Assembly (NCBI GenBank): GCA_017469405.1
Contig: JAFUGL010000023.1
Location: forward strand, 1,111-65,110
Source of the DNA: Lachnospiraceae bacterium
GTDB lineage: Bacteria; Bacillota; Clostridia; Lachnospirales; Lachnospiraceae
DNA: 64,000 nucleotides
Direction: 5' to 3'
The notes under the pieces were generated by a model that made no database searches, was not told the origin of the DNA, and saw only the letters and a program-made list of their open reading frames with translations. A program made the position numbers and the translations under genes. Shown here piece after piece: positions 45,540-54,559 of this stretch (position 1 is its first letter; each line of letters opens with the position of its first letter).

Positions 45540-46439
45540 TCACATCCACATTTTGTTCTTATAACTCCATCGTTTATCGAAATATTCTTTTCTAAGTATG
45601 TTCAGATAGATTGGTTCAAGAAATACCACCAGCCTGTCCAGCATATCATCAAACAGCAAACCTGTTTCCTTCGCCGGATCAAACGCATTCCACAGGGTAT
45701 TCAATGCAGTATTGTTCTTAAAATCCGCAATTTCCTCAAAAACATCAGCCGATAATTTTCTGTTACGATGAGTCAATGTACTTTTAACCGCTTCTATAAG
45801 AACCATTCCTTCAAAATCAAATATCCCTGACAGATAATAAATGTCATAGAAATCCTTCATCCTGCTTGTTCCGGCCATTCTCTGAAGAATTGCATCAAAT
45901 TTTTCTGCAATAGTACTTTCCAACGAATAAGTGTATACCTCCGGAGAGGTAAAATCGGGTAATCTTGTAACAATTGACCTTTTAATCGGATTAGGTACGA
46001 TTACATCATCAATACCGATATCAATTAAAAACGGAATCCTCACCTTTCCTATACGTCCAATAAAATTAATTTTTACACCGGGATATTTTTTATCTAACGA
46101 TATATTCTCTGTTCCCAAAACCTCCAATGTTATAAAATCATTTCCCGTACTGACATTGCAGATTTCTCTCATTATCTGCTCTATGTTGTCCGGGTTTCCT
46201 TGCAGATTCCTTATCAAGAAATCAATATCTCTTGTCGGTCTTGAATCAAACTCCGTAAGTGTATATATAAACATTCCACCCTTCAAAATCAGGTTATTAT
46301 CATATTTGGAAAGGGATAATTTTCTCAAAAATTCTTCCTGTGCAAAGAGCTGAAGTACCATCTGAAACGGAATCCCCTCTTCTTTTGACTGATTTTTCAA
46401 TCTTGTCAGCACTGATGCCTCCATATTCTTTATAGCCAT
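45540..46439 (-). CDS. AbiEii nucleotidyltransferase toxin (type IV TA)
   Basis: LILKGG, RPTRDIDF, STIAEKF, SRMKDFYDI. Confidence 0.92.
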   Translation of the reverse strand: MAIKNMEASVLTRLKNQSKEEGIPFQMVLQLFAQEEFLRKLSLSKYDNNLILKGGMFIYTLTEFDSRPTRDIDFLIRNLQGNPDNIEQIMREICNVSTGNDFITLEVLGTENISLDKKYPGVKINFIGRIGKVRIPFLIDIGIDDVIVPNPIKRSIVTRLPDFTSPEVYTYSLESTIAEKFDAILQRMAGTSRMKDFYDIYYLSGIFDFEGMVLIEAVKSTLTHRNRKLSADVFEEIADFKNNTALNTLWNAFDPAKETGLLFDDMLDRLVVFLEPIYLNILRKEYFDKRWSYKNKMWM

Positions 46440-47023
46440 ACTCCCAGCACCTCCCTTACCTTCTTTTCCACATGAAGTAGCTTGGCATACTTCATTAGTC
46501 TTGCCGTTGCCTTATTCGGATCTTGGACATATCGTTGGATAGCTACATTGAAAACTTCTCCGTCAACTTTGTTCCTATGCAGAAGCAGATCACAAATTGT
46601 TCTTTCCCTATCATATATCTTGATAGGTTTCCCATCAATTTCAGTTTCTTCTATCCCAACCCGGTATCGATCATTCCGAATAAAGTGTGGCTTCACAATA
46701 GGATAATCTATATAGAATCTTGTTCTTGTACTCTTATTATCCACTGCCAGATGCCACGCTGCCGGAGTCCTGTCTGTGTAACCATAGTAATCCAATGCAC
46801 TTTCCATACAGATTACACCATCCGGAAATAGTGTAGTAATGATAGGAATGTCCGAAAAGGAATCTTCTCCTGAGTACTGATAATAGCCTCGTCTAATCTG
46901 CTCAATCTCACCATCTTCAAGCAATTGCTGAATTTTTTTATAATAAATGCCTTCCTCTTTAAGTTCAGAAGTTCTCATCAGACCACCATACATATCAAAA
47001 ATTTTTTTAATATTTTCATTCAT
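46430..47023 (-). CDS. AbiEi antitoxin / transcriptional regulator (type IV TA)
   Basis: IEQIRRGYY, ICMESALDYYG, IYDRERTICD; overlaps AbiEii. Start at MNENIK. Confidence 0.92.
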   Translation of the reverse strand: MNENIKKIFDMYGGLMRTSELKEEGIYYKKIQQLLEDGEIEQIRRGYYQYSGEDSFSDIPIITTLFPDGVICMESALDYYGYTDRTPAAWHLAVDNKSTRTRFYIDYPIVKPHFIRNDRYRVGIEETEIDGKPIKIYDRERTICDLLLHRNKVDGEVFNVAIQRYVQDPNKATARLMKYAKLLHVEKKVREVLGVWL

Positions 47024-47254
47024 AATACAATCCCTCTTTTTTATCATAATATACAATTTAATTATAGTTTTTGTATAGTTTGATAAATTAAGTATATCTG
47101 TTGTTTCGAAAAAAGTCAAGATAAACAGTCAACAGAGATAATAATTTCTGTTGGCAATTTTTTATAAAAATTGTTATATTTTTTAATTCTAAAAAAAGAC
47201 ACTTCTTAAATACTTAAGAAGTGTCCCATAATCATTTCATAATATTTCAATTTC

Positions 47255-48874
47255 CTAATTCAAACTCTTCATCGTCGGGAAGAGCAAAACATCTCTTATA
47301 GCTGGCGAATCCGTCATCAACATACACAACCTGTCAATTCCATAACCGATACCACCCGTAGGAGGCATACCGATTTCAAGCGCATTTAAGAAGTCCTCGT
47401 CGGTGTGGTTGGCTTCCTCGTCGCCTGCGTCAGCGAGCTTATCCTGCTCGGCAAAACGCTCTCTCTGGTCGATTGGATCATTAAGCTCTGAGTATGCGTT
47501 ACACATCTCCCATCCGTTCATGAACATTTCAAAACGCTCCACGTATTCCGGATTCTCAGGCTTCTTCTTGGTAAGAGGTGAGATTTCGATTGGGTGATCC
47601 ATTACAAATGTAGGCTGGATAAGGTGCTCCTCAACATACTCCTCGAAGAAGAGGTTAAGTATATCGCCCTTCTTGTGTCTGTCCTCATACTCGACATGCT
47701 TTTCGTCTGCAATCTTTCTTGCATCCTCAAGTGTCTTTATCTCATTCCAGTCAACGCCTGCGTACTTCTTAACAGCGTCAATCATGGTTATTCTCTCAAA
47801 CGGCTTGCCCAGATCCATCTCAACGCCCTGATAGGTGATAGTGGTTGTACCAAGCACTTCTTGAGCGATATATCGATACATTTCCTCGGTCAGATCCATC
47901 ATGCCGTTGTAGTCGGTATATGCCTGATAAAGTTCCATAAGTGTGAACTCAGGATTGTGTCTTGTATCAAGTCCCTCATTTCTGAATACTCGACCTATCT
48001 CGTACACTCTTTCAAGTCCGCCGACGATAAGTCTCTTTAAGTATAACTCAAGTGAGATACGAAGCTTAAGGTCCTCGCCAAGTGCGTTGAAATGTGTCTC
48101 AAACGGTCTTGCTGCGGCACCACCCGCATTTGACACGAGCATCGGAGTTTCAACCTCCATGAAGTCCTTGCCTGCAAGGAACTTTCTTATCGCTGCGATT
48201 ATCTTGGAACGCTTGATAAATGTATCCTTAACATCCGCATTCATGATAAGGTCGGTATATCTTTGTCTGTATCTCATATCTGTGTTGGTGAGTCCGTGAT
48301 ATTTCTCAGGAAGTATCTGAAGTGACTTGGTAAGAAGTGTAACCTCATTTACATGAATTGAAATCTCACCTGTCATAGTTCTAAATACATAGCCCTTTAT
48401 ACCAACGATATCACCCACATCGTATTTCTTATAATCTGCGTAGTTTTCCTCGCCGATATTGTCTCTTGCAACATATATCTGGATGTTGCCGGATTTATCC
48501 TGTACATTTGAAAATGAAGCCTTTCCCATGATACGCTTGCTCATAAGACGACCTGCTATGCTTACCTCGATAGGTGAAGCATCCATGATGGCGCGGCGCT
48601 CCTCATAATCCTTCTTTCTAAGCGGTCTTGCCTCCTCCTCAGGAAGTCCTGTTACATCCACAGGAGTTCTGCCGGAAAGCAGCTCGCTCTCTAACTTTTC
48701 ATATAAAGCTACACAGTCGGCAGTATGATGAGTCACATCATACTTGGTTATTACAAATGGATCCTTTCCATTTGCCTGGAGCTCTGCAAGCTTTTCTCTT
48801 CTTACCTTAAGAAGCTGGTTTATGTCCTGCTCCTTAGGCTGTTCATTATTGTTCTTGTTTTGGTTTTCTGCCAT
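47255..48874 (-). CDS. lysS: Lysine--tRNA ligase (class II)
   Basis: [37 protein letters not shown]. Confidence 0.98.
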
Positions 48875-49020: not shown

Positions 49021-49500
49021 TTACTTCTTTCTTATATCAAGTATCTTGTACTGGAATTCTCCGTCAGGAGCCTCTACAGTAACAACCTCGCCGACTTTCT
49101 TTCTCATGATTGCTGCGCCAAGAGGTGATTCATTTGAAATCTTTCCCTTAAGGAAATCTGCTTCAGTTGAACCAACAATCTTATACTCAACAACCTCATC
49201 CATATCGATGTCATGAAGCACTACAAGTGAACCAAAGTTTACAGTTCCTGCCTCAGTTTCATCCTCGTCAAATACCTCTGCATTTTTAAGGATTTTCTCT
49301 ATCTCTTCGATTCTTGCCTCGATATCACGCTGTTCATCCTTTGCAGCATCATACTCAGCGTTTTCTGATAAGTCACCCTGCTCTCTTGCTTCCTTAATCT
49401 TTTGAGCAACTTCCTGTCTTTTATTTACTTTTAAATCCTGTAACTCATCCTCTAACTGTTTAAGACCTTCATAACTAAGAATATTCTTCTTCTCTGCCAT
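49021..49500 (-). CDS. greA: Transcription elongation factor GreA
   Basis: GDLSENAEYDAAK, ISNESPLG. Confidence 0.98.
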   Translation of the reverse strand: MAEKKNILSYEGLKQLEDELQDLKVNKRQEVAQKIKEAREQGDLSENAEYDAAKDEQRDIEARIEEIEKILKNAEVFDEDETEAGTVNFGSLVVLHDIDMDEVVEYKIVGSTEADFLKGKISNESPLGAAIMRKKVGEVVTVEAPDGEFQYKILDIRKK

Positions 49501-49661
49501 ATCAAAATCCCTTTCTACATATCGATGAATAAACCTTGATTTGCATCAGCAATCATGTCATCCATCATATTATTTCACAAAAATTCAATGCCACAATTAT
49601 ACTCCATTAAACCTATATTGTCAAAGCATAAATCGGTTTAAAATGCTATACATAATTTGCA

Positions 49662-50735
49662 TTAAAACAGTATATCCCTAAAGCACAGTATCGGTTCATC
49701 ATTTTCAAAGTCCCAACTATGATATGAATCTCCGTGGCATCTGTCCTTTTCGCTGCAGTCTTGACACTTATCGCATCTGTCGCTTAAATCAATTCTAAAT
49801 TCCCCAAACCGGTTTTCCCATACATCTTTAAATCTATCCTTTAAGATATTTCCCTGCACAAGCTCCGGTCTTCTTTCGATATCCAGACACGCTATAATAT
49901 CACCACTTGCAGTTATGCTTGCGACGTAAAGACCTGCCGAACATATGAAATACCAATCTCTTATCTCATGCTCATAATCCATGCCAAGATAATGACTGCA
50001 GCCGTATTCAACAGGCTCACCCGCCATCCTCTTATCTCTGATAAATTTCATGAGATACTGATAATCTTCCCTGGTTAAAATGAGTTCCGGATGAAGTTTT
50101 GCCCTTCCCATAGGCTCTATATTTATCACTCTCCAGGAATCGATATCCATTTTGTCAAATATTTCGTAGAGAGCATCTAACTCGCCTATGTTTTGATGGG
50201 TAACCACGGTAGTAACCTGAATAGTTTTGAATTTGTCTACATCTATAAGATTTTGGATACCCTCCATAGCTTTCTTATAACCACCCGGTGTCTGTCTGAA
50301 AGCGTCGTGTGTAGCCTCAAGTCCGTCGATACTTACGGATATGGTGCTCATCCCTGCCTCATAGAGTTTTTCGGCAATTTCCGGAGTAATCAAAGTACCA
50401 TTGCTCGTCATTCCCCACTTAAATCCAAGCATTTTTGCATAACCCATTATATCAAAGAAGTCTTTTCTAAGTAGCGGTTCCCCTCCGGTTATGCAAAGCA
50501 TAAAGCCCTTTGTTCCGAAGTCTTCCTTTACCTCATCCAGAAATGCTTTGTATTGCTCTAAGGTTAATTCCTCGCTTTTAACATCTCCGCAGGAGCTTCC
50601 GCAGTGCAGACAATGCTCATTGCACCGAAGTGTAAGTTCAAGAAACAAATTCTTGAGTAACGGTTTTTTCTTAAGATTTTCCCTGTACTCAGCGAGCTGC
50701 CTCATGTGTTCATATTTTGTATCAACATTTAACAT
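49662..50735 (-). CDS. Radical SAM / SPASM domain protein
   Basis: CNEHCLHC, TGGEPLLR, C-terminal CSAG...GDIIAC...CDKCQDC...CHGD..C. Confidence 0.92.
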   Translation of the reverse strand: MLNVDTKYEHMRQLAEYRENLKKKPLLKNLFLELTLRCNEHCLHCGSSCGDVKSEELTLEQYKAFLDEVKEDFGTKGFMLCITGGEPLLRKDFFDIMGYAKMLGFKWGMTSNGTLITPEIAEKLYEAGMSTISVSIDGLEATHDAFRQTPGGYKKAMEGIQNLIDVDKFKTIQVTTVVTHQNIGELDALYEIFDKMDIDSWRVINIEPMGRAKLHPELILTREDYQYLMKFIRDKRMAGEPVEYGCSHYLGMDYEHEIRDWYFICSAGLYVASITASGDIIACLDIERRPELVQGNILKDRFKDVWENRFGEFRIDLSDRCDKCQDCSEKDRCHGDSYHSWDFENDEPILCFRDILF

Positions 50736-50826
50736 ACAAATTACCCCATGCAATCCCTATGTATACTTATCATCTGAAAATTTACTTTGTACATATTTTT
50801 CAGTCATATTTTTCCGACAGGCCATA

Positions 50827-51099
50827 TTAATCATAAAATTCAGGCGGTGGTCCGTACACCTCCACCGGCTCATCATCCTCCGGATTATATTTCTCAGTAG
50901 TTGTCTCTTCAGTAGTTGTATCATCAAAGTCTGTCGGCGGACCATATACAGTCTCCGGCTCAGTTATCTCGATATCCTCTGTTGTCAGCTTATCGGTCGT
51001 TTGATCGTTTTTGTTAGACCGGCAGCTTGTAAACCCTGCCAAAAACACTCCACTGGTCAAAGCAGCCGCTATGAGTTTTGTTTTGGTTGTTTTTTTCAT
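50827..51099 (-). CDS. Small acidic putative lipoprotein with two VYGPP motifs (candidate rSAM substrate)
   Basis: Basic N-terminus, hydrophobic stretch, FTSC lipobox-like Cys; EPETVYGPPTDF and EPVEVYGPPPEF. Confidence 0.8.
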   Translation of the reverse strand: MKKTTKTKLIAAALTSGVFLAGFTSCRSNKNDQTTDKLTTEDIEITEPETVYGPPTDFDDTTTEETTTEKYNPEDDEPVEVYGPPPEFYD

Positions 51100-51164
51100 A
51101 CTCTACCTTCTCCCATATACATTTCCTTTATTATTCATGTAAAGTCATTTCGATTCAATTATAC

Positions 51165-52616
51165 TTATATATTAACTATCTGATTTAAATCGTACAGCAA
51201 TAACCTGCTATCATTTTTTGCCTCTTCAATAATCTTTTTATCAAAGCCCGACTTGGAAAATAACACATAGTAAAAATCAGCTGTTTCCTTAAGGCTCATA
51301 AGCTTTGCCAATGTATCAAGATACTCAGAATAATTAAACTTTGTTTTCTTATACTTACATTCTCCAACGAGATATTCCTTTGCTTCTTTTCCTATTCCAA
51401 GCAAATCTATCTCTGTTTCCGATTCTCTAAAGCCGCTTGACGAACCACTGTCGCGAACAGTTGTTTTTCCCATCCATCTGCCAAGCTGAAGGTACCTGAA
51501 AGGCAATGCATTTTTCTTTTGAAGATTTTTTACAAACTCCTTGCATACATCCTCAAAAACATGTGATGCAAATTCATCAAGTGCAGGAGCAATCATATAA
51601 TCGTATACACCCTCAACATCTCCATCCTCAAGCTGAGAAATATTAACAAATCCAAATGTATACCAGAATCTGAAAAAGTTATCCGTCAAGCTATATGTTC
51701 CTCTGTTTGAATTCGCTTTTTCCTTATCTTTAGAGCCAACCGAAAATTCACGCATTACGATACCAAGTTCTATCAGATTTTTTAAATAGACACTGGTTTT
51801 TGATGTGTCCCCTACAAGAGATTTCTGACTTATATCATTAAGCTTTGTACTCCCAAGAGCGACCGCCTCGATAATAGCATTATAAATCGGCGTCTCCCGA
51901 AGTTCCTGATGAAGTAAGAAATCAACCTCACTGTACAATACCGAACCTTTAGACAAAATGTTTCTCTTTATATTATCAGCTACAGATATTTCAGGATTAA
52001 ACTGGCAAAGATAATGTGGTATACCACCAAGTATTGCATATGCCAATATCTTATCCTCATCAGAATAATTCGGAAAAAACCTGATAGCATCATAAAAGCC
52101 CATTTCAGTCATTTTATATATGCCGGTAGCTCTTCCATATAGTGGATTTTTCTCTGCAAGCAAGTCCTTTTCAATAAAACTCATCGCACTTCCACACAGC
52201 ACAATCATAACATTCTCATCTTTAAGCTCCGTATCCCAGAGATTTTGCAATATAGAAGGTATGCTTCTGTTACCTTTACACAAATAAGGAAACTCATCGA
52301 TTATAACTAATTTCTTTTTTTTGCCAAAAGGTAAATCCTTTAAAGAGCGAAAAGCTGTCTCCCAATCCGGAAAATCTGATATATATTTTTTAGCCGGAAT
52401 ATCTTCCTTAAATATCTGATTTGAAAACTTAGCAAGCTGTATTTTATCCGTACTTTGAGTACATGAATAAAAAATGTGTGGCTTTCCTTTACAAAATTCT
52501 CTTAAAGTTTCTGTTTTCCCAACACGACGCCTGCCATACAAAACAACAAGTTGTCCTTTTTTTTCACTATATTTATCATTAAGAAAAGATAGCTCTGATT
52601 CTCTTCCTATAAACAT
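51165..52616 (-). CDS. Archaeal-type ATPase with C-terminal DUF234 / PD-(D/E)xK domain
   Basis: MFIGRESEL, YGRRRVGKT, IIDEFPY, DNFFRFW, EIDL...VGECKY. Confidence 0.88.
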   Translation of the reverse strand: MFIGRESELSFLNDKYSEKKGQLVVLYGRRRVGKTETLREFCKGKPHIFYSCTQSTDKIQLAKFSNQIFKEDIPAKKYISDFPDWETAFRSLKDLPFGKKKKLVIIDEFPYLCKGNRSIPSILQNLWDTELKDENVMIVLCGSAMSFIEKDLLAEKNPLYGRATGIYKMTEMGFYDAIRFFPNYSDEDKILAYAILGGIPHYLCQFNPEISVADNIKRNILSKGSVLYSEVDFLLHQELRETPIYNAIIEAVALGSTKLNDISQKSLVGDTSKTSVYLKNLIELGIVMREFSVGSKDKEKANSNRGTYSLTDNFFRFWYTFGFVNISQLEDGDVEGVYDYMIAPALDEFASHVFEDVCKEFVKNLQKKNALPFRYLQLGRWMGKTTVRDSGSSSGFRESETEIDLLGIGKEAKEYLVGECKYKKTKFNYSEYLDTLAKLMSLKETADFYYVLFSKSGFDKKIIEEAKNDSRLLLYDLNQIVNI

Positions 52617-52756: not shown

Positions 52757-53410
52757 TTACCTTCCCACAAGTGCCTTCGATACTTCAATAACGCCCTTAT
52801 GCTTTAGCTCTCTCGGTTCAAACTTTATAAGATAATACACAAGCTGCATCACAAGTCCCGCTCCAAATGTACTTATCAGAGTTCCTATACCTACCGAGCC
52901 TCCAAGCAGATACCCTGCCAGCAAAACCACAGCCCAAAGCATTACCTCAACTATGCCTATCGGGACCCTTGACATTCTCTTTCCGAGTCCTACCAAAAGC
53001 GCATCTCTCGGACCACAGCACTGCTCCGCACTCATGTATATCCACATTCCGATTGCCATAAACACAAATCCGACAAGCATTATAACAATTCCCAACCAGA
53101 GATTATTATTTTCAGGAAACGGATTGAGACTGTTATACATCTGCACAAAATTACCTGTAAGGAGTGCATCTATGATTGTTCCGTAGCCTATCTTTTCCTT
53201 GAGCAAAACATCTATCAAAAGAATAATCACTGCCATAATCGTCATGGAAATTCCATAATTAAACGGTGTATGCTTCGCCATACCCATCCCCAGGCAGTCC
53301 CATGGTGCAAGTCCGATATTGGCATATATCGTCATATGGACTCCCAATGCGAAAACCAGCAATCCTAACACAATTCTTATCCATTCCAAAAAAAGTCTTT
53401 TACGGGTCAT
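52757..53410 (-). CDS. YczE/YyaS/YitT family membrane protein
   Basis: ANIGLAPWD, EKIGYGTII, GPRDALLVG, VGIGTLI. Confidence 0.88.
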   Translation of the reverse strand: MTRKRLFLEWIRIVLGLLVFALGVHMTIYANIGLAPWDCLGMGMAKHTPFNYGISMTIMAVIILLIDVLLKEKIGYGTIIDALLTGNFVQMYNSLNPFPENNNLWLGIVIMLVGFVFMAIGMWIYMSAEQCCGPRDALLVGLGKRMSRVPIGIVEVMLWAVVLLAGYLLGGSVGIGTLISTFGAGLVMQLVYYLIKFEPRELKHKGVIEVSKALVGR

Positions 53411-54485
53411 TTTTCTGTTTTCTCCCTAACCGCAATCTTTTTGATTAATTTCAGAACATATTTTGTCAATAGCTTAACCAAGAATGCAACAATTATTATA
53501 ACTATAAACTGGTATAAAAACATTAGCAAAATCATATATTTGTTTACATACCATTTTGAAAGCCATGAACCCATATCAAGAATTATGAAATGATGTACCA
53601 GCAATACTTCATAAGAAACACTACTCAAAAAATCAAGTATTCTTAATTTGTATTTTTTCAACAATTCTTCAAAAAACGAACATGATACAAAAAAGGCAAC
53701 TGAAGCCATCGTAATTTTCAACGCCACATTGATATTAAGCGCACTTTTACTGACAATAAAATATACCAGAACAGGAAATGAAACATACATACATTTAGAA
53801 GGAAATCTCTTAAAATATCTTCCAAAATACATTCCCAATATAAATTCGCAGCCCTTGATTATCAAATTCTCCCAAAGCGGCACCTTAAAACTTATGCCAC
53901 TATATGCGGTAATTACATAAACGCACGCTGAAACGACAAAAAATATCTTAGGATATTTATCCATAAAAAATTTAAATACCGGAAACAGTACATACAAGAT
54001 AATTATCGCGCCTAGAAACCATTCGCCTATTGCCTTATAAAATGTAGGAACTTTGTGTATCGCGAGCCAACCGTCAATACCAAGAAATGAATAAATAAAT
54101 CTCCATCTTGGAATGTCAGGAAGTCTATGCCTTTTAATTTGATCCAAAGATACACATATAAAAGAATATTAACTATATAAAACGAAGGCATCAGTCTTAT
54201 AAATCTTTTCTTGTAAAAACTTTTCACACTGTATGATTTATCAGCACTTGTAATAAGTCCCGCACCTGAAAGAATAAAAAATACAGAAACAGAAAGGGTT
54301 GCTATATGCATATTTGGATTTTGAAAATAAACAGCAACCTCTCCAAAAGTATAAACGCCACTTGAATATAGGTACACAAGCATATGATAAAGCACAATCA
54401 ACCCAAAGGATATCACCCTTATCAAGTCATAGTATCTATATCTTTCCGTATCTTTAACATTATCTTTCTTTAATAACGAACTCAT
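53407..54485 (-). pseudogene. Acyltransferase family 3 (OafA-like), frameshifted near 54120
   Basis: N-half has DLIRVIS, FFILSG, KRFIRL; C-half has EWFLGAII..YVLFP, SYEVLLVH. The frames join at ...GIDF / PDIPRW with one base missing. Confidence 0.8.
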
Positions 54486-54522
54486 AAAAACCTCTTTATC
54501 ACTGTTAATCATATATGCACGT

Positions 54523-54559
54523 AAAAAGTGTGTCAAAATAAAATTATGACACACTTTTT
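54523..54559. repeat. REP-like hairpin / terminator after purH
   Basis: AAAAAGTGTGTCA...TGACACACTTTTT. Confidence 0.65.

Follow-up and report, generated by a model that had tools for sequence, protein, structure and literature searches.

A radical SAM/SPASM enzyme paired with a YGPP-motif lipoprotein in rumen Clostridia: a putative maturase and surface-anchored substrate

Background

Several described enzymes of the radical S-adenosylmethionine (SAM)/SPASM type act on ribosomally made proteins or peptides. The anaerobic sulfatase-maturating enzyme (anSME) is cytoplasmic and acts on a short C/S-x-P-x-R motif in signal-peptide proteins, which are then exported. MftC and PqqE modify a Tyr in a ribosomal peptide, need a partner (MftB and PqqD, respectively) that supplies a recognition element (RRE) of the kind found in ribosomally made, post-translationally modified peptide (RiPP) systems, and lead to excised cofactors. 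Triceptide and WGK-type maturases install a cross-link at an aromatic side chain, with a mass change of -2 Da, in systems that rely on leader peptides and RREs together with exporters or proteases. A fourth system is defined computationally by the NCBIfam hypothetical equivalogs TIGR04133 (rSAM_w_lipo) and TIGR04134 (lipo_with_rSAM), in which an enzyme of about 350 amino acids (aa) is encoded beside a lipoprotein. Here we analyze a stretch of 64,000 nucleotides (nt) from a Lachnospiraceae bacterium (assembly GCA_017469405.1, contig JAFUGL010000023.1; hereafter the window), whose minus strand encodes a radical SAM/SPASM enzyme and, just upstream of it, a 90-aa lipoprotein with two YGPP motifs.

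Read from sequence, this pair appears to be a two-gene maturase/substrate module, in which a Tyr-Gly core would be modified before Sec export and the product then lipidated and anchored at the cell surface; we put the probability of this reading at about 0.6. The neighboring YGPP protein is very probably the substrate of the enzyme. That the modification is an oxidative, Tyr-centered cross-link or desaturation, as opposed to some other change at the motif, is a more tentative proposal, to which we give somewhat less than even odds. The pair represents a divergent branch, from rumen Clostridia, of the widespread 'rSAM/lipoprotein' system, which was known computationally before and to which the window adds a variant with YGPP motifs.

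The enzyme resembles anSME (anSMEcpe, PDB 4K36-4K39, which has two auxiliary clusters) in being an RRE-less radical SAM/SPASM build. Sequence identity is only about 20%, however, the fourth Cys of the CX2CX5CX3C pattern is missing in the window enzyme, and the anSME family is absent from the best 25 of its 77 NCBIfam matches. The substrates differ as well: the lipoprotein has no C/S-x-P-x-R motif, no sulfatase domain and no Cys except Cys26, and its target core is Tyr-Gly. With the triceptide and WgkB maturases the system shares an aromatic-Gly-X core that is repeated within the precursor, but the match to the WgkB profile (NF050035) reaches 112.8 bits where the cutoff is 650. Triceptide and WGK-type systems accept Trp or Phe, whereas here Tyr is exclusive, the residue at Tyr+2 varies across the superfamily and the product is read as anchored. 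Unlike a classical RiPP cluster, the system has no RRE, dedicated protease or transporter at the window locus or conserved in the 61 related loci described below.

Pairing of the enzyme with a YGPP protein in related genomes

The scan for related loci used one genome per species and gave 61 loci with enzymes 57-95% identical to that of the window. Their sources are Lachnospiraceae, Ruminococcus, Oscillospiraceae, Erysipelotrichaceae and further Clostridia, for the most part of the rumen or gut. At 58 of the 61, a same-strand open reading frame (ORF) with YGPP ends no more than 700 nt 5' of the enzyme gene. The adjacent partners are signal-peptide proteins with one to seven YGPP motifs. The gap to the enzyme gene is mostly 1-70 nt, the two genes overlap in three loci, and at four of the 58 a more distant 5' ORF (258-399 nt) was also counted beside the adjacent partner. 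An earlier note on this DNA, made from the sequence alone, had proposed a neighborhood analysis of the pairing, and its outcome favors the note: homologs of the enzyme in these loci do not usually lack a YGPP neighbor.

Clustering of the ORFs within 4 kb at these loci left the enzyme and the YGPP protein as the only conserved members, and the outer flanks differ even among the closest relatives. A third conserved gene, be it for a protease, a transporter or an RRE, was sought in the 61 loci and none was found. The earlier note was also right that neither a protease nor a transporter gene adjoins the pair, whose neighbors in the window (greA, lysS and an ATPase_2/DUF234 gene) are not conserved in the 61 loci. 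Where export and anchor signals are kept and protease, transporter and RRE are not conserved, its view of a product that is displayed and not released is the natural one.

Six-frame translation of the window gave a single YGPP-bearing ORF, with two copies. In the other ORFs of the related loci (167,893 aa) YGPP occurs ten times, all in further similar lipoproteins that are located about 1.3-2 kb 5' of the enzyme in Ruminococcus flavefaciens and its relatives. Since a second YGPP lipoprotein lies near the same enzyme in these genomes, one enzyme may serve several substrates. The second lipoproteins (L022 3808-4182; L024 3849-4223; L025 401-679; L026 340-618; L036 3781-4236) are 92-151 aa long, carry three to four motifs and are encoded in addition to the dockerin-bearing YGPP neighbor of the enzyme.

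These data bear directly on the explanation that the adjacency is due to chance and that YGPP is a mere linker motif of secreted Clostridia proteins. Thr/Pro-rich linkers are, as a matter of general knowledge, common in surface proteins of rumen Firmicutes. Nevertheless, the pairing is kept in nearly all of the 61 loci while the outer flanks change, YGPP outside partner proteins occurs neither in the window nor elsewhere among the ORFs of the related loci, and the pairing spans Bacillota, the TIGR04133/TIGR04134 pairs, a contig labeled Deltaproteobacteria and archaea (see below). We consider chance adjacency effectively refuted.

The YGPP lipoprotein and its motifs

The N-terminus of the 90-aa protein reads MKKTTKTKLIAAALTSGVFLAGFTSC and has, by the sequence rules on which the call rests, the build of a Sec-type lipoprotein signal peptide, with a K-rich n-region, a hydrophobic core and the lipobox G-F-T-S-C (Cys26 at 51022-51024). 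No twin-arginine motif was found in the signal peptide. Only 12 homologs could be detected, at 50-94% identity; the lipobox region and both YGPP are invariant in them, and F19-L20-A21-G22-F23-T24 and C26 are unchanged in all 13 sequences. The 64 aa that follow the Cys are acidic, Thr/Glu-rich and of low complexity, and the protein matched no family in Pfam or NCBIfam. The ORF of this length, the FTSC lipobox and the acidic Thr/Glu-rich body that the earlier note had described are thus all present, and the positions it gave for the two YGPP are exact (Table 1). It went too far in calling the two 12-mers near-identical: EPETVYGPPTDF and EPVEVYGPPPEF are similar, with 8 of 12 residues shared.

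The YGPP motifs lie 26 and 56 residues past the lipobox Cys. The residues fixed in the orthologs are P48, T50, Y52, G53, P54 and P55 in motif 1, and Y71, P73, P78, V81, Y82, G83, P84 and P85 in motif 2. The second motif sits in a longer module, Y-N-P-x8-Y-G-P-P, in which Tyr71 is exactly 11 residues ahead of Tyr82. The motif peptide considered as a candidate substrate of the enzyme is YNPEDDEPVEVYGPPPEFYD.

Motif statistics were compiled for a core set of 162 YGPP in the 64 partners that lie closest to the enzyme gene and for a wider set of 73 partners. In the core set, the residue ahead of the Tyr (position -1) is Val in 118 motifs, Leu in 25 and Ala in 11, and position +6 is Phe in 70. The wider set contains 190 GPP, 189 of them preceded by Tyr and none by Phe or Trp, although the same proteins hold 389 Phe residues. 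A [YF][DN]P element is found exactly 11 residues ahead of the Tyr in 55 of the 189 motifs, including motif 2 of the window. In the mature regions of the partners, Thr accounts for 13.8% of residues, Glu for 10.5%, Pro for 9.7% and Asp for 9.6%, and His and Cys for 0.4% and 0.3%.

While the motif is constant, the anchors vary. A lipobox is present in at least 31 loci, the partners in Ruminococcus and Oscillospiraceae have a Sec signal together with Dockerin_1, and at one locus the partner contains a Big_2 domain. A large secreted partner at L052 (3257-5161) combines Big_2 with seven long Thr/Glu/Gln-rich repeats, each of which ends in YDPxxNxxPxVYGPPEYF; it is the clearest case of the module with 11-residue spacing.

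The radical SAM/SPASM enzyme

The enzyme ORF can be counted from a TTG at 50753 (49662-50753), an alternative start, but the ATG at 50735 is the likely one, since the resulting 357 aa is the length of nearly all homologs; a GGGG ribosome-binding site lies 8 nt ahead of this ATG. The enzyme has 2710 homologs and matches the Pfam families Radical_SAM (82.3 bits) and SPASM (32.2 bits, cutoff 21.5), in agreement with the CxxxCxxC plus SPASM architecture read in the earlier note. The CX3CX2C motif, CNEHCLHC, provides Cys38, Cys42 and Cys45 for the SAM-binding [4Fe-4S] cluster, and Cys49, four residues past it, is kept in 51 of 52 sequences. A GGEP SAM-binding motif is also present. In the SPASM region, six Cys (265, 283, 324, 327, 333 and 351; auxiliary Fe-S cluster ligands) are invariant, and position 246, just ahead of the region, is Cys, Glu or Asp. 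The GX4C (G278-C283) and CX2CX5C parts of the SPASM pattern are present; the usual fourth Cys (CX3C) is absent, with an invariant His339 nearby.

Without a signal peptide, the enzyme is expected to be cytoplasmic. Only 37 residues precede the cluster motif, and no RRE/PqqD-like domain was found in the enzyme, for which Pfam shows Radical_SAM and SPASM alone. An AlphaFold2 model (mean predicted local distance difference test score, pLDDT, 94; predicted template modeling score, pTM, 0.91) was compared with solved structures using Foldseek. The matches included the peptide maturases SkfB, SuiB and CteB, followed by BlsE and anSMEcpe, and the best full-length overlay was with anSMEcpe (TM-score 0.73/0.72). 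SuiB and CteB carry extra N-terminal RRE domains that are absent from the window enzyme in the overlay. By sequence the closest solved structure is SkfB (E 4e-15), which is no near relative. As modeled, the enzyme has an anSME-like build without a peptide-recognition domain.

Relation to TIGR04133/TIGR04134 and distant relatives

Among NCBIfam families the enzyme matches TIGR04133 best, scoring 278.8 bits (E 5.4e-83) across positions 10-345 of the 350-position profile, short of the cutoff of 425. TIGR04133 leads the next family by 118 bits (AhbD 161, MftC 146.9 and NirJ2 146), and it is the best match for all near representatives of the enzyme clade (213-391 bits). The window enzyme shares the traits of the family, namely CX3CX2C plus SPASM, a length of about 350 aa with no extra domain, and a small same-strand lipoprotein encoded next to it. 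The lipoprotein gave no match to the TIGR04134 hidden Markov model (HMM) at E <= 0.1 (cutoff 39.8 bits). It shares with that family the lipobox Cys and an x-Y-G-x-P element (V-Y-G-P-P, twice), a trait that we observed in TIGR04134 members and that is no published criterion. The C-terminal beta-sandwich of TIGR04134 (about 100 aa, CarboxypepD_reg-like) was looked for in the lipoprotein and not found, nor was any Pfam match. The comparison with TIGR04133/TIGR04134 in the earlier note pointed to the right neighborhood, as seen from the top match and the common lipobox and Y-G-x-P, whereas formal membership fell short in both families when the HMM check that it suggested was made.

Partners of the same kind accompany distant relatives of the enzyme, and all of them are annotated as 'hypothetical protein' in their sources. 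A Logan short-read contig encodes a 76-aa lipoprotein with two KYGPP, and Clostridium swellfunianum encodes lipoproteins of 54 and 57 aa in tandem, with two KYGPP each. On a JGI metagenome contig, where the enzyme was named 'rSAM/lipoprotein system' by JGI, the partner is a 61-aa lipoprotein, again with two KYGPP. A contig with an enzyme labeled Deltaproteobacteria by NCBI encodes a downstream 222-aa lipoprotein with many [LM]YGP[PM]P, and in a Methanocella contig a downstream 114-aa protein contains MYGVP and KYGPPP and ends in a C-terminal transmembrane helix.

When metagenomes were scanned with a profile of TIGR04133-like enzymes, 80 loci were obtained, 74 of them with a flank of at least 400 nt on one side. 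An adjacent same-strand ORF with YG(x0-2)P was found at 65 loci (one of these with shorter flanks), compared with 13.6% of all ORFs that are 100 aa or longer. All ten of the enzymes that were scored are genuine TIGR04133 (470-585 bits), and six of their partners are genuine TIGR04134 (96-123 bits), with a lipobox followed by [E/M]YG[T/S/V]P. The motif commonly lies 5-15 residues past the Cys across the metagenome loci, and a weak, sub-threshold CarboxypepD_reg match was obtained for two of three canonical TIGR04134 members scanned. Four partners of genuine TIGR04133 enzymes are short repeat lipoproteins (for example, SCEYGAPVPEYGVMPMYGPP) that score 0-21 bits, below the TIGR04134 cutoff. The superfamily-wide common feature is therefore an export/anchor signal with x-Y-G-(x)-P rather than the TIGR04134 fold.

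The window pair thus resembles the genuine TIGR04133/TIGR04134 pairs in the order of lipobox and x-Y-G-x-P and differs from them in several respects. The enzyme is only 31-39% identical to the TIGR04133-like relatives with which it was aligned. Canonical TIGR04134 members have a single E-Y-G-T-P close to the Cys, whereas the window protein has two Y-G-P-P much further along an acidic stalk, and the Ruminococcus partner is a dockerin protein and not a lipoprotein.

Fused enzymes and the identity of the substrate

Among the representatives at 50% identity, two enzymes (P0139 and P0148) carry a fused C-terminal tail that contains YGPP and zinc-ribbon-like cysteines, and a third (P0143) has an N-terminal extension with three vYG..P ahead of the radical SAM domain. 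Such fusions argue against a non-peptide substrate, such as the tetrapyrrole or lipid of AhbD, NirJ or GDGT-MAS, for which the YGPP protein would be a functional partner. AhbD and NirJ2 are next-best NCBIfam matches and the enzyme has no RRE domain, both of which speak for that alternative. In nature, however, the motif alone is found fused to the enzyme, and a four-residue motif is conserved across phyla beside the enzyme clade; the partners share neither a common fold nor a His/Cys motif for cofactor ligands, and no tetrapyrrole pathway genes are nearby. We regard a non-peptide substrate as improbable.

Four further enzymes (P0149, P0151, P0159 and P0163) have a C-terminal domain with HSHPx7Sx2D that matches nothing in Pfam and that we read, by eye, as JAMM/MPN-like. 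The genes 5' of these enzymes encode cytoplasmic proteins of 130-148 aa with C-L-Y-G-C-P, a non-exported form of the motif that the fused peptidase may cut. At L075 (3-2028) and L076 (77-2173), relatives with this fusion lie downstream of a C-L-Y-G-C-P protein that has the motif in its C-terminal part.

A peptidase-like domain fused to some relatives of the enzyme, together with the cytoplasmic C-L-Y-G-C-P protein, is what one might expect if the YG motif were excised as a Tyr-derived small molecule or cofactor, PQQ- or mycofactocin-like, and the lipoprotein were a sacrificial scaffold. The commonest core, Val-Tyr, is that of MftA; MftC acts on Val-Tyr, which the window motifs also carry, and MftC and PqqE are among the weaker NCBIfam matches, behind TIGR04133 and AhbD. 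Yet the scores are far under the cutoffs (146.9 against 265 for MftC, TIGR03962; 85.6 against 381 for PqqE), and the window locus has no gene comparable to MftB or PqqD. MftC needs a C-terminal Tyr, whereas the Tyr residues here are internal. The substrates keep export and anchor signals and several motifs per chain, as befits an anchored product in place of an excised one, and no peptidase or tailoring gene is conserved in the window and the 61 related genomes. Excision is thus, in our estimate, quite improbable.

Proposed mechanism and nature of the modification

In the maturase/substrate scheme that we favor, the cytoplasmic enzyme would recognize hydrophobic-Tyr-Gly-Pro-Pro, or its long form Y-[DN]-P-x8-Y-G-P-P-x-x-F, in the unfolded pre-lipoprotein. 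Reductive cleavage of SAM would give a 5'-deoxyadenosyl radical that abstracts a hydrogen within the Tyr-Gly core, and the auxiliary Fe-S clusters would accept an electron, for a net two-electron oxidation at each of the two motifs. As for the product, our leading guess is a Tyr-centered cross-link within the motif, or a desaturation, at -2 Da for each motif. The modified precursor would then be exported by Sec, lipidated at Cys26 by Lgt and Lsp, and held at the membrane's outer face on the acidic Thr/Glu-rich stalk, with no cleavage or release. Because Tyr is exclusive, a chemistry that requires the phenol is suggested, and a net two-electron oxidation is favored because of the full SPASM Cys set and the kinship with oxidizing and cross-linking SPASM enzymes. 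Given that Phe or Trp never replaces the Tyr, the proposal of the earlier note, Tyr-centered cross-links that cost 2 Da per motif, is plausible.

Several observations weigh against this scheme. Position -1 takes different residues in the superfamily (V, L, A, K, E, M) and the Pro lies at +2 to +4, so there is no obvious fixed cross-link partner. The next NCBIfam matches after TIGR04133 include the tetrapyrrole enzymes AhbD and NirJ besides the peptide enzyme MftC. In the AlphaFold2 model of the P0139 fusion, the YGPP tail is at pLDDT 44-53 and is not docked with confidence. Two of the 61 loci (L053 and L054) have no YG-P partner, and in a Butyrivibrio (L060) the lipoprotein has MYGSP only and no YGPP. 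P0228, which at 457 bits exceeds the TIGR04133 cutoff, is instead surrounded by small Cys/Asp-rich peptides, an indication that the substrate of the clade is not uniform. The sequencing runs that hold the locus are of metagenomic DNA only, with no RNA run among them. Finally, a literature search on the YGPP, TIGR04133 and TIGR04134 rSAM-lipoprotein system found nothing relevant.

Particular cross-link partners were considered and set aside. A Glu-Tyr cross-link as in PQQ was rejected, there being no Glu conserved at a fixed distance, and Pro is unlikely as a fixed partner in view of its shifting position.

The same variability would be compatible with a reading in which the pair is as proposed but the reaction is no oxidative cross-link: L-to-D epimerization, similar to that of YydG/EpeE or PoyD, or another change at Tyr-Gly, would need no fixed partner at all. 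The near-invariant Cys49 could donate a hydrogen atom, as Cys223 does in EpeE; EpeE is found among the structural matches, low in the list; and D-residues would, we infer, shield an exposed, disordered stalk from rumen proteases. Simple C-alpha epimerization, however, has no need for a strict Tyr that is never Phe or Trp, the full SPASM Cys set for two auxiliary clusters is typical of net-oxidizing enzymes, and the closest structural matches (SkfB, SuiB, CteB and anSME) cross-link or oxidize. On balance this alternative is unlikely, although it is a serious competitor of the oxidative reading.

A bolder idea is that the enzyme makes an anaerobic Tyr-derived redox-active or chromophoric moiety that stays tethered to the surface by a lipid, dockerin or transmembrane anchor. 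It is suggested by the conservation of the core, with Phe never in place of Tyr, an invariant Gly and no constraint on the preceding residue. X-Tyr-Gly of GFP-type chromophores shows the same pattern, and the core is also similar to the Tyr-based precursors from which PqqE and MftC form cofactors. We consider it a long shot. If it were true, a peptide-borne cofactor would be displayed outside the cell by anaerobes, and its carriers would be rumen Clostridia, the TIGR04133/TIGR04134 carriers, the Deltaproteobacteria-labeled contig and methanogen-related archaea.

Two kinds of locus are exceptions. At L053 and L054 (5798-5980 in both), a 60-aa ORF with a transmembrane-like hydrophobic stretch, ending in CLECIGIG, is found 5' of the enzyme. 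At L073 (887-2501) and L074 (3-1647), the 457-bit enzyme lies amid several Cys/Asp-rich small peptides, which share the leader VSELIFL or VS.LYF, and a second radical SAM/SPASM gene; this arrangement resembles a thioether-type RiPP cluster more than a lipoprotein system.

Significance

The enzyme clade is large, with 388 clusters at 50% identity reaching E <= 1e-30, and it is common in anaerobes of gut, rumen and sediment. Our comparison reduces the system to a minimal unit, an RRE-less radical SAM/SPASM enzyme and a Tyr-Gly-(x)-Pro motif in a surface-bound protein. This unit is what connects the curated TIGR04133/TIGR04134 pairs with dockerin proteins in the cellulosomes of Ruminococcus, 30-residue lipopeptides in Clostridium and a membrane protein of an archaeon. 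Should the enzyme modify the motif, the result would be a new pre-export post-translational modification of bacterial surface proteins, for which anSME and the sulfatases are, to our knowledge, the only close precedent, and a new Tyr-directed radical SAM reaction. It would also offer a naturally lipid-anchored modified peptide that is useful for peptide engineering and for studies of rumen and gut surface biology.

Organization of the locus and neighboring genes

On the minus strand of the window the gene order is ATPase_2/DUF234 gene, 90-aa ORF, radical SAM/SPASM gene, greA and lysS (Table 1). The lipoprotein and enzyme genes look like one bicistronic unit, because there is no terminator between them and promoter matches lie on either side. 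The earlier note had placed the lipoprotein about 90 bp 5' of the enzyme with no terminator in between, and this holds: the spacer has no terminator-like hairpin, and a scan of its minus strand for terminator-like sites found none. The case for co-transcription rests on this spacer and on the short or overlapping gaps in relatives. The perfect promoter match 5' of greA is the 3' limit of the two-gene unit.

Table 1. Features of the enzyme-lipoprotein locus in window coordinates, listed in the direction of minus-strand transcription
Feature	Position	Strand	Evidence or remark
ATPase_2/DUF234 gene	51165-52616	minus	
Weak sigma-70-like promoter, TTGAAT-17-AATAAT, 9/12	51130-51158	minus	consensus match only; just 5' of lipoprotein gene
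Pre-lipoprotein gene, putative substrate, stop codon included	50827-51099	minus	ORF and 12 homologs
Sec-type lipoprotein signal peptide, residues 1-26	51022-51099	minus	sequence read; conservation in 13 sequences
Motif 1, EPETVYGPPTDF, residues 47-58, Tyr52	50926-50961	minus	YGPP at 50935-50946
Motif 2, extended, YNPEDDEPVEVYGPPPEF, residues 71-88, Tyr82	50836-50889	minus	YGPP at 50845-50856
Intergenic spacer, 91 nt	50736-50826	minus	no terminator-like hairpin seen
Radical SAM/SPASM gene, 357 aa, putative maturase	49662-50735	minus	Pfam, NCBIfam, homolog length
CNEHCLHC, CX3CX2C for SAM-binding [4Fe-4S], Cys38/42/45	50601-50624	minus	conserved in 52/52
SPASM region, residues 265-351	49683-49943	minus	Pfam and alignment
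Perfect sigma-70 promoter match, TTGACA-17-TATAAT, 12/12	49596-49624	minus	between enzyme stop codon and greA
greA	49021-49500	minus	
lysS	47255-48874	minus	

The ATPase_2/DUF234 gene is directly 5' of the lipoprotein gene in the window and L001 only. In L002 and L006 the lipoprotein gene is directly bordered by the gene for a 217-aa membrane protein (window 52757-53410), and in L004 and L005 by a purH-like gene. Since the 5' neighbor differs among these close loci, the ATPase_2/DUF234 gene looks like a recent insertion, and the lipoprotein-enzyme pair therefore moves as a unit.

Two further observations concern the surroundings in the window, both on the minus strand. Just 3' of lysS, two ORFs with a 10-nt overlap (45540-47119) encode a type IV toxin-antitoxin pair, with an AbiEii nucleotidyltransferase as the toxin (299 aa, 144.8 bits) and an AbiEi-like antitoxin (30.9 bits). 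An Acyl_transf_3 acyltransferase (53407-54554) seems to be divided between two overlapping ORFs that lie in different frames (54027-54554 and 53407-54147), which could reflect a frameshift, a pseudogene or an assembly error.

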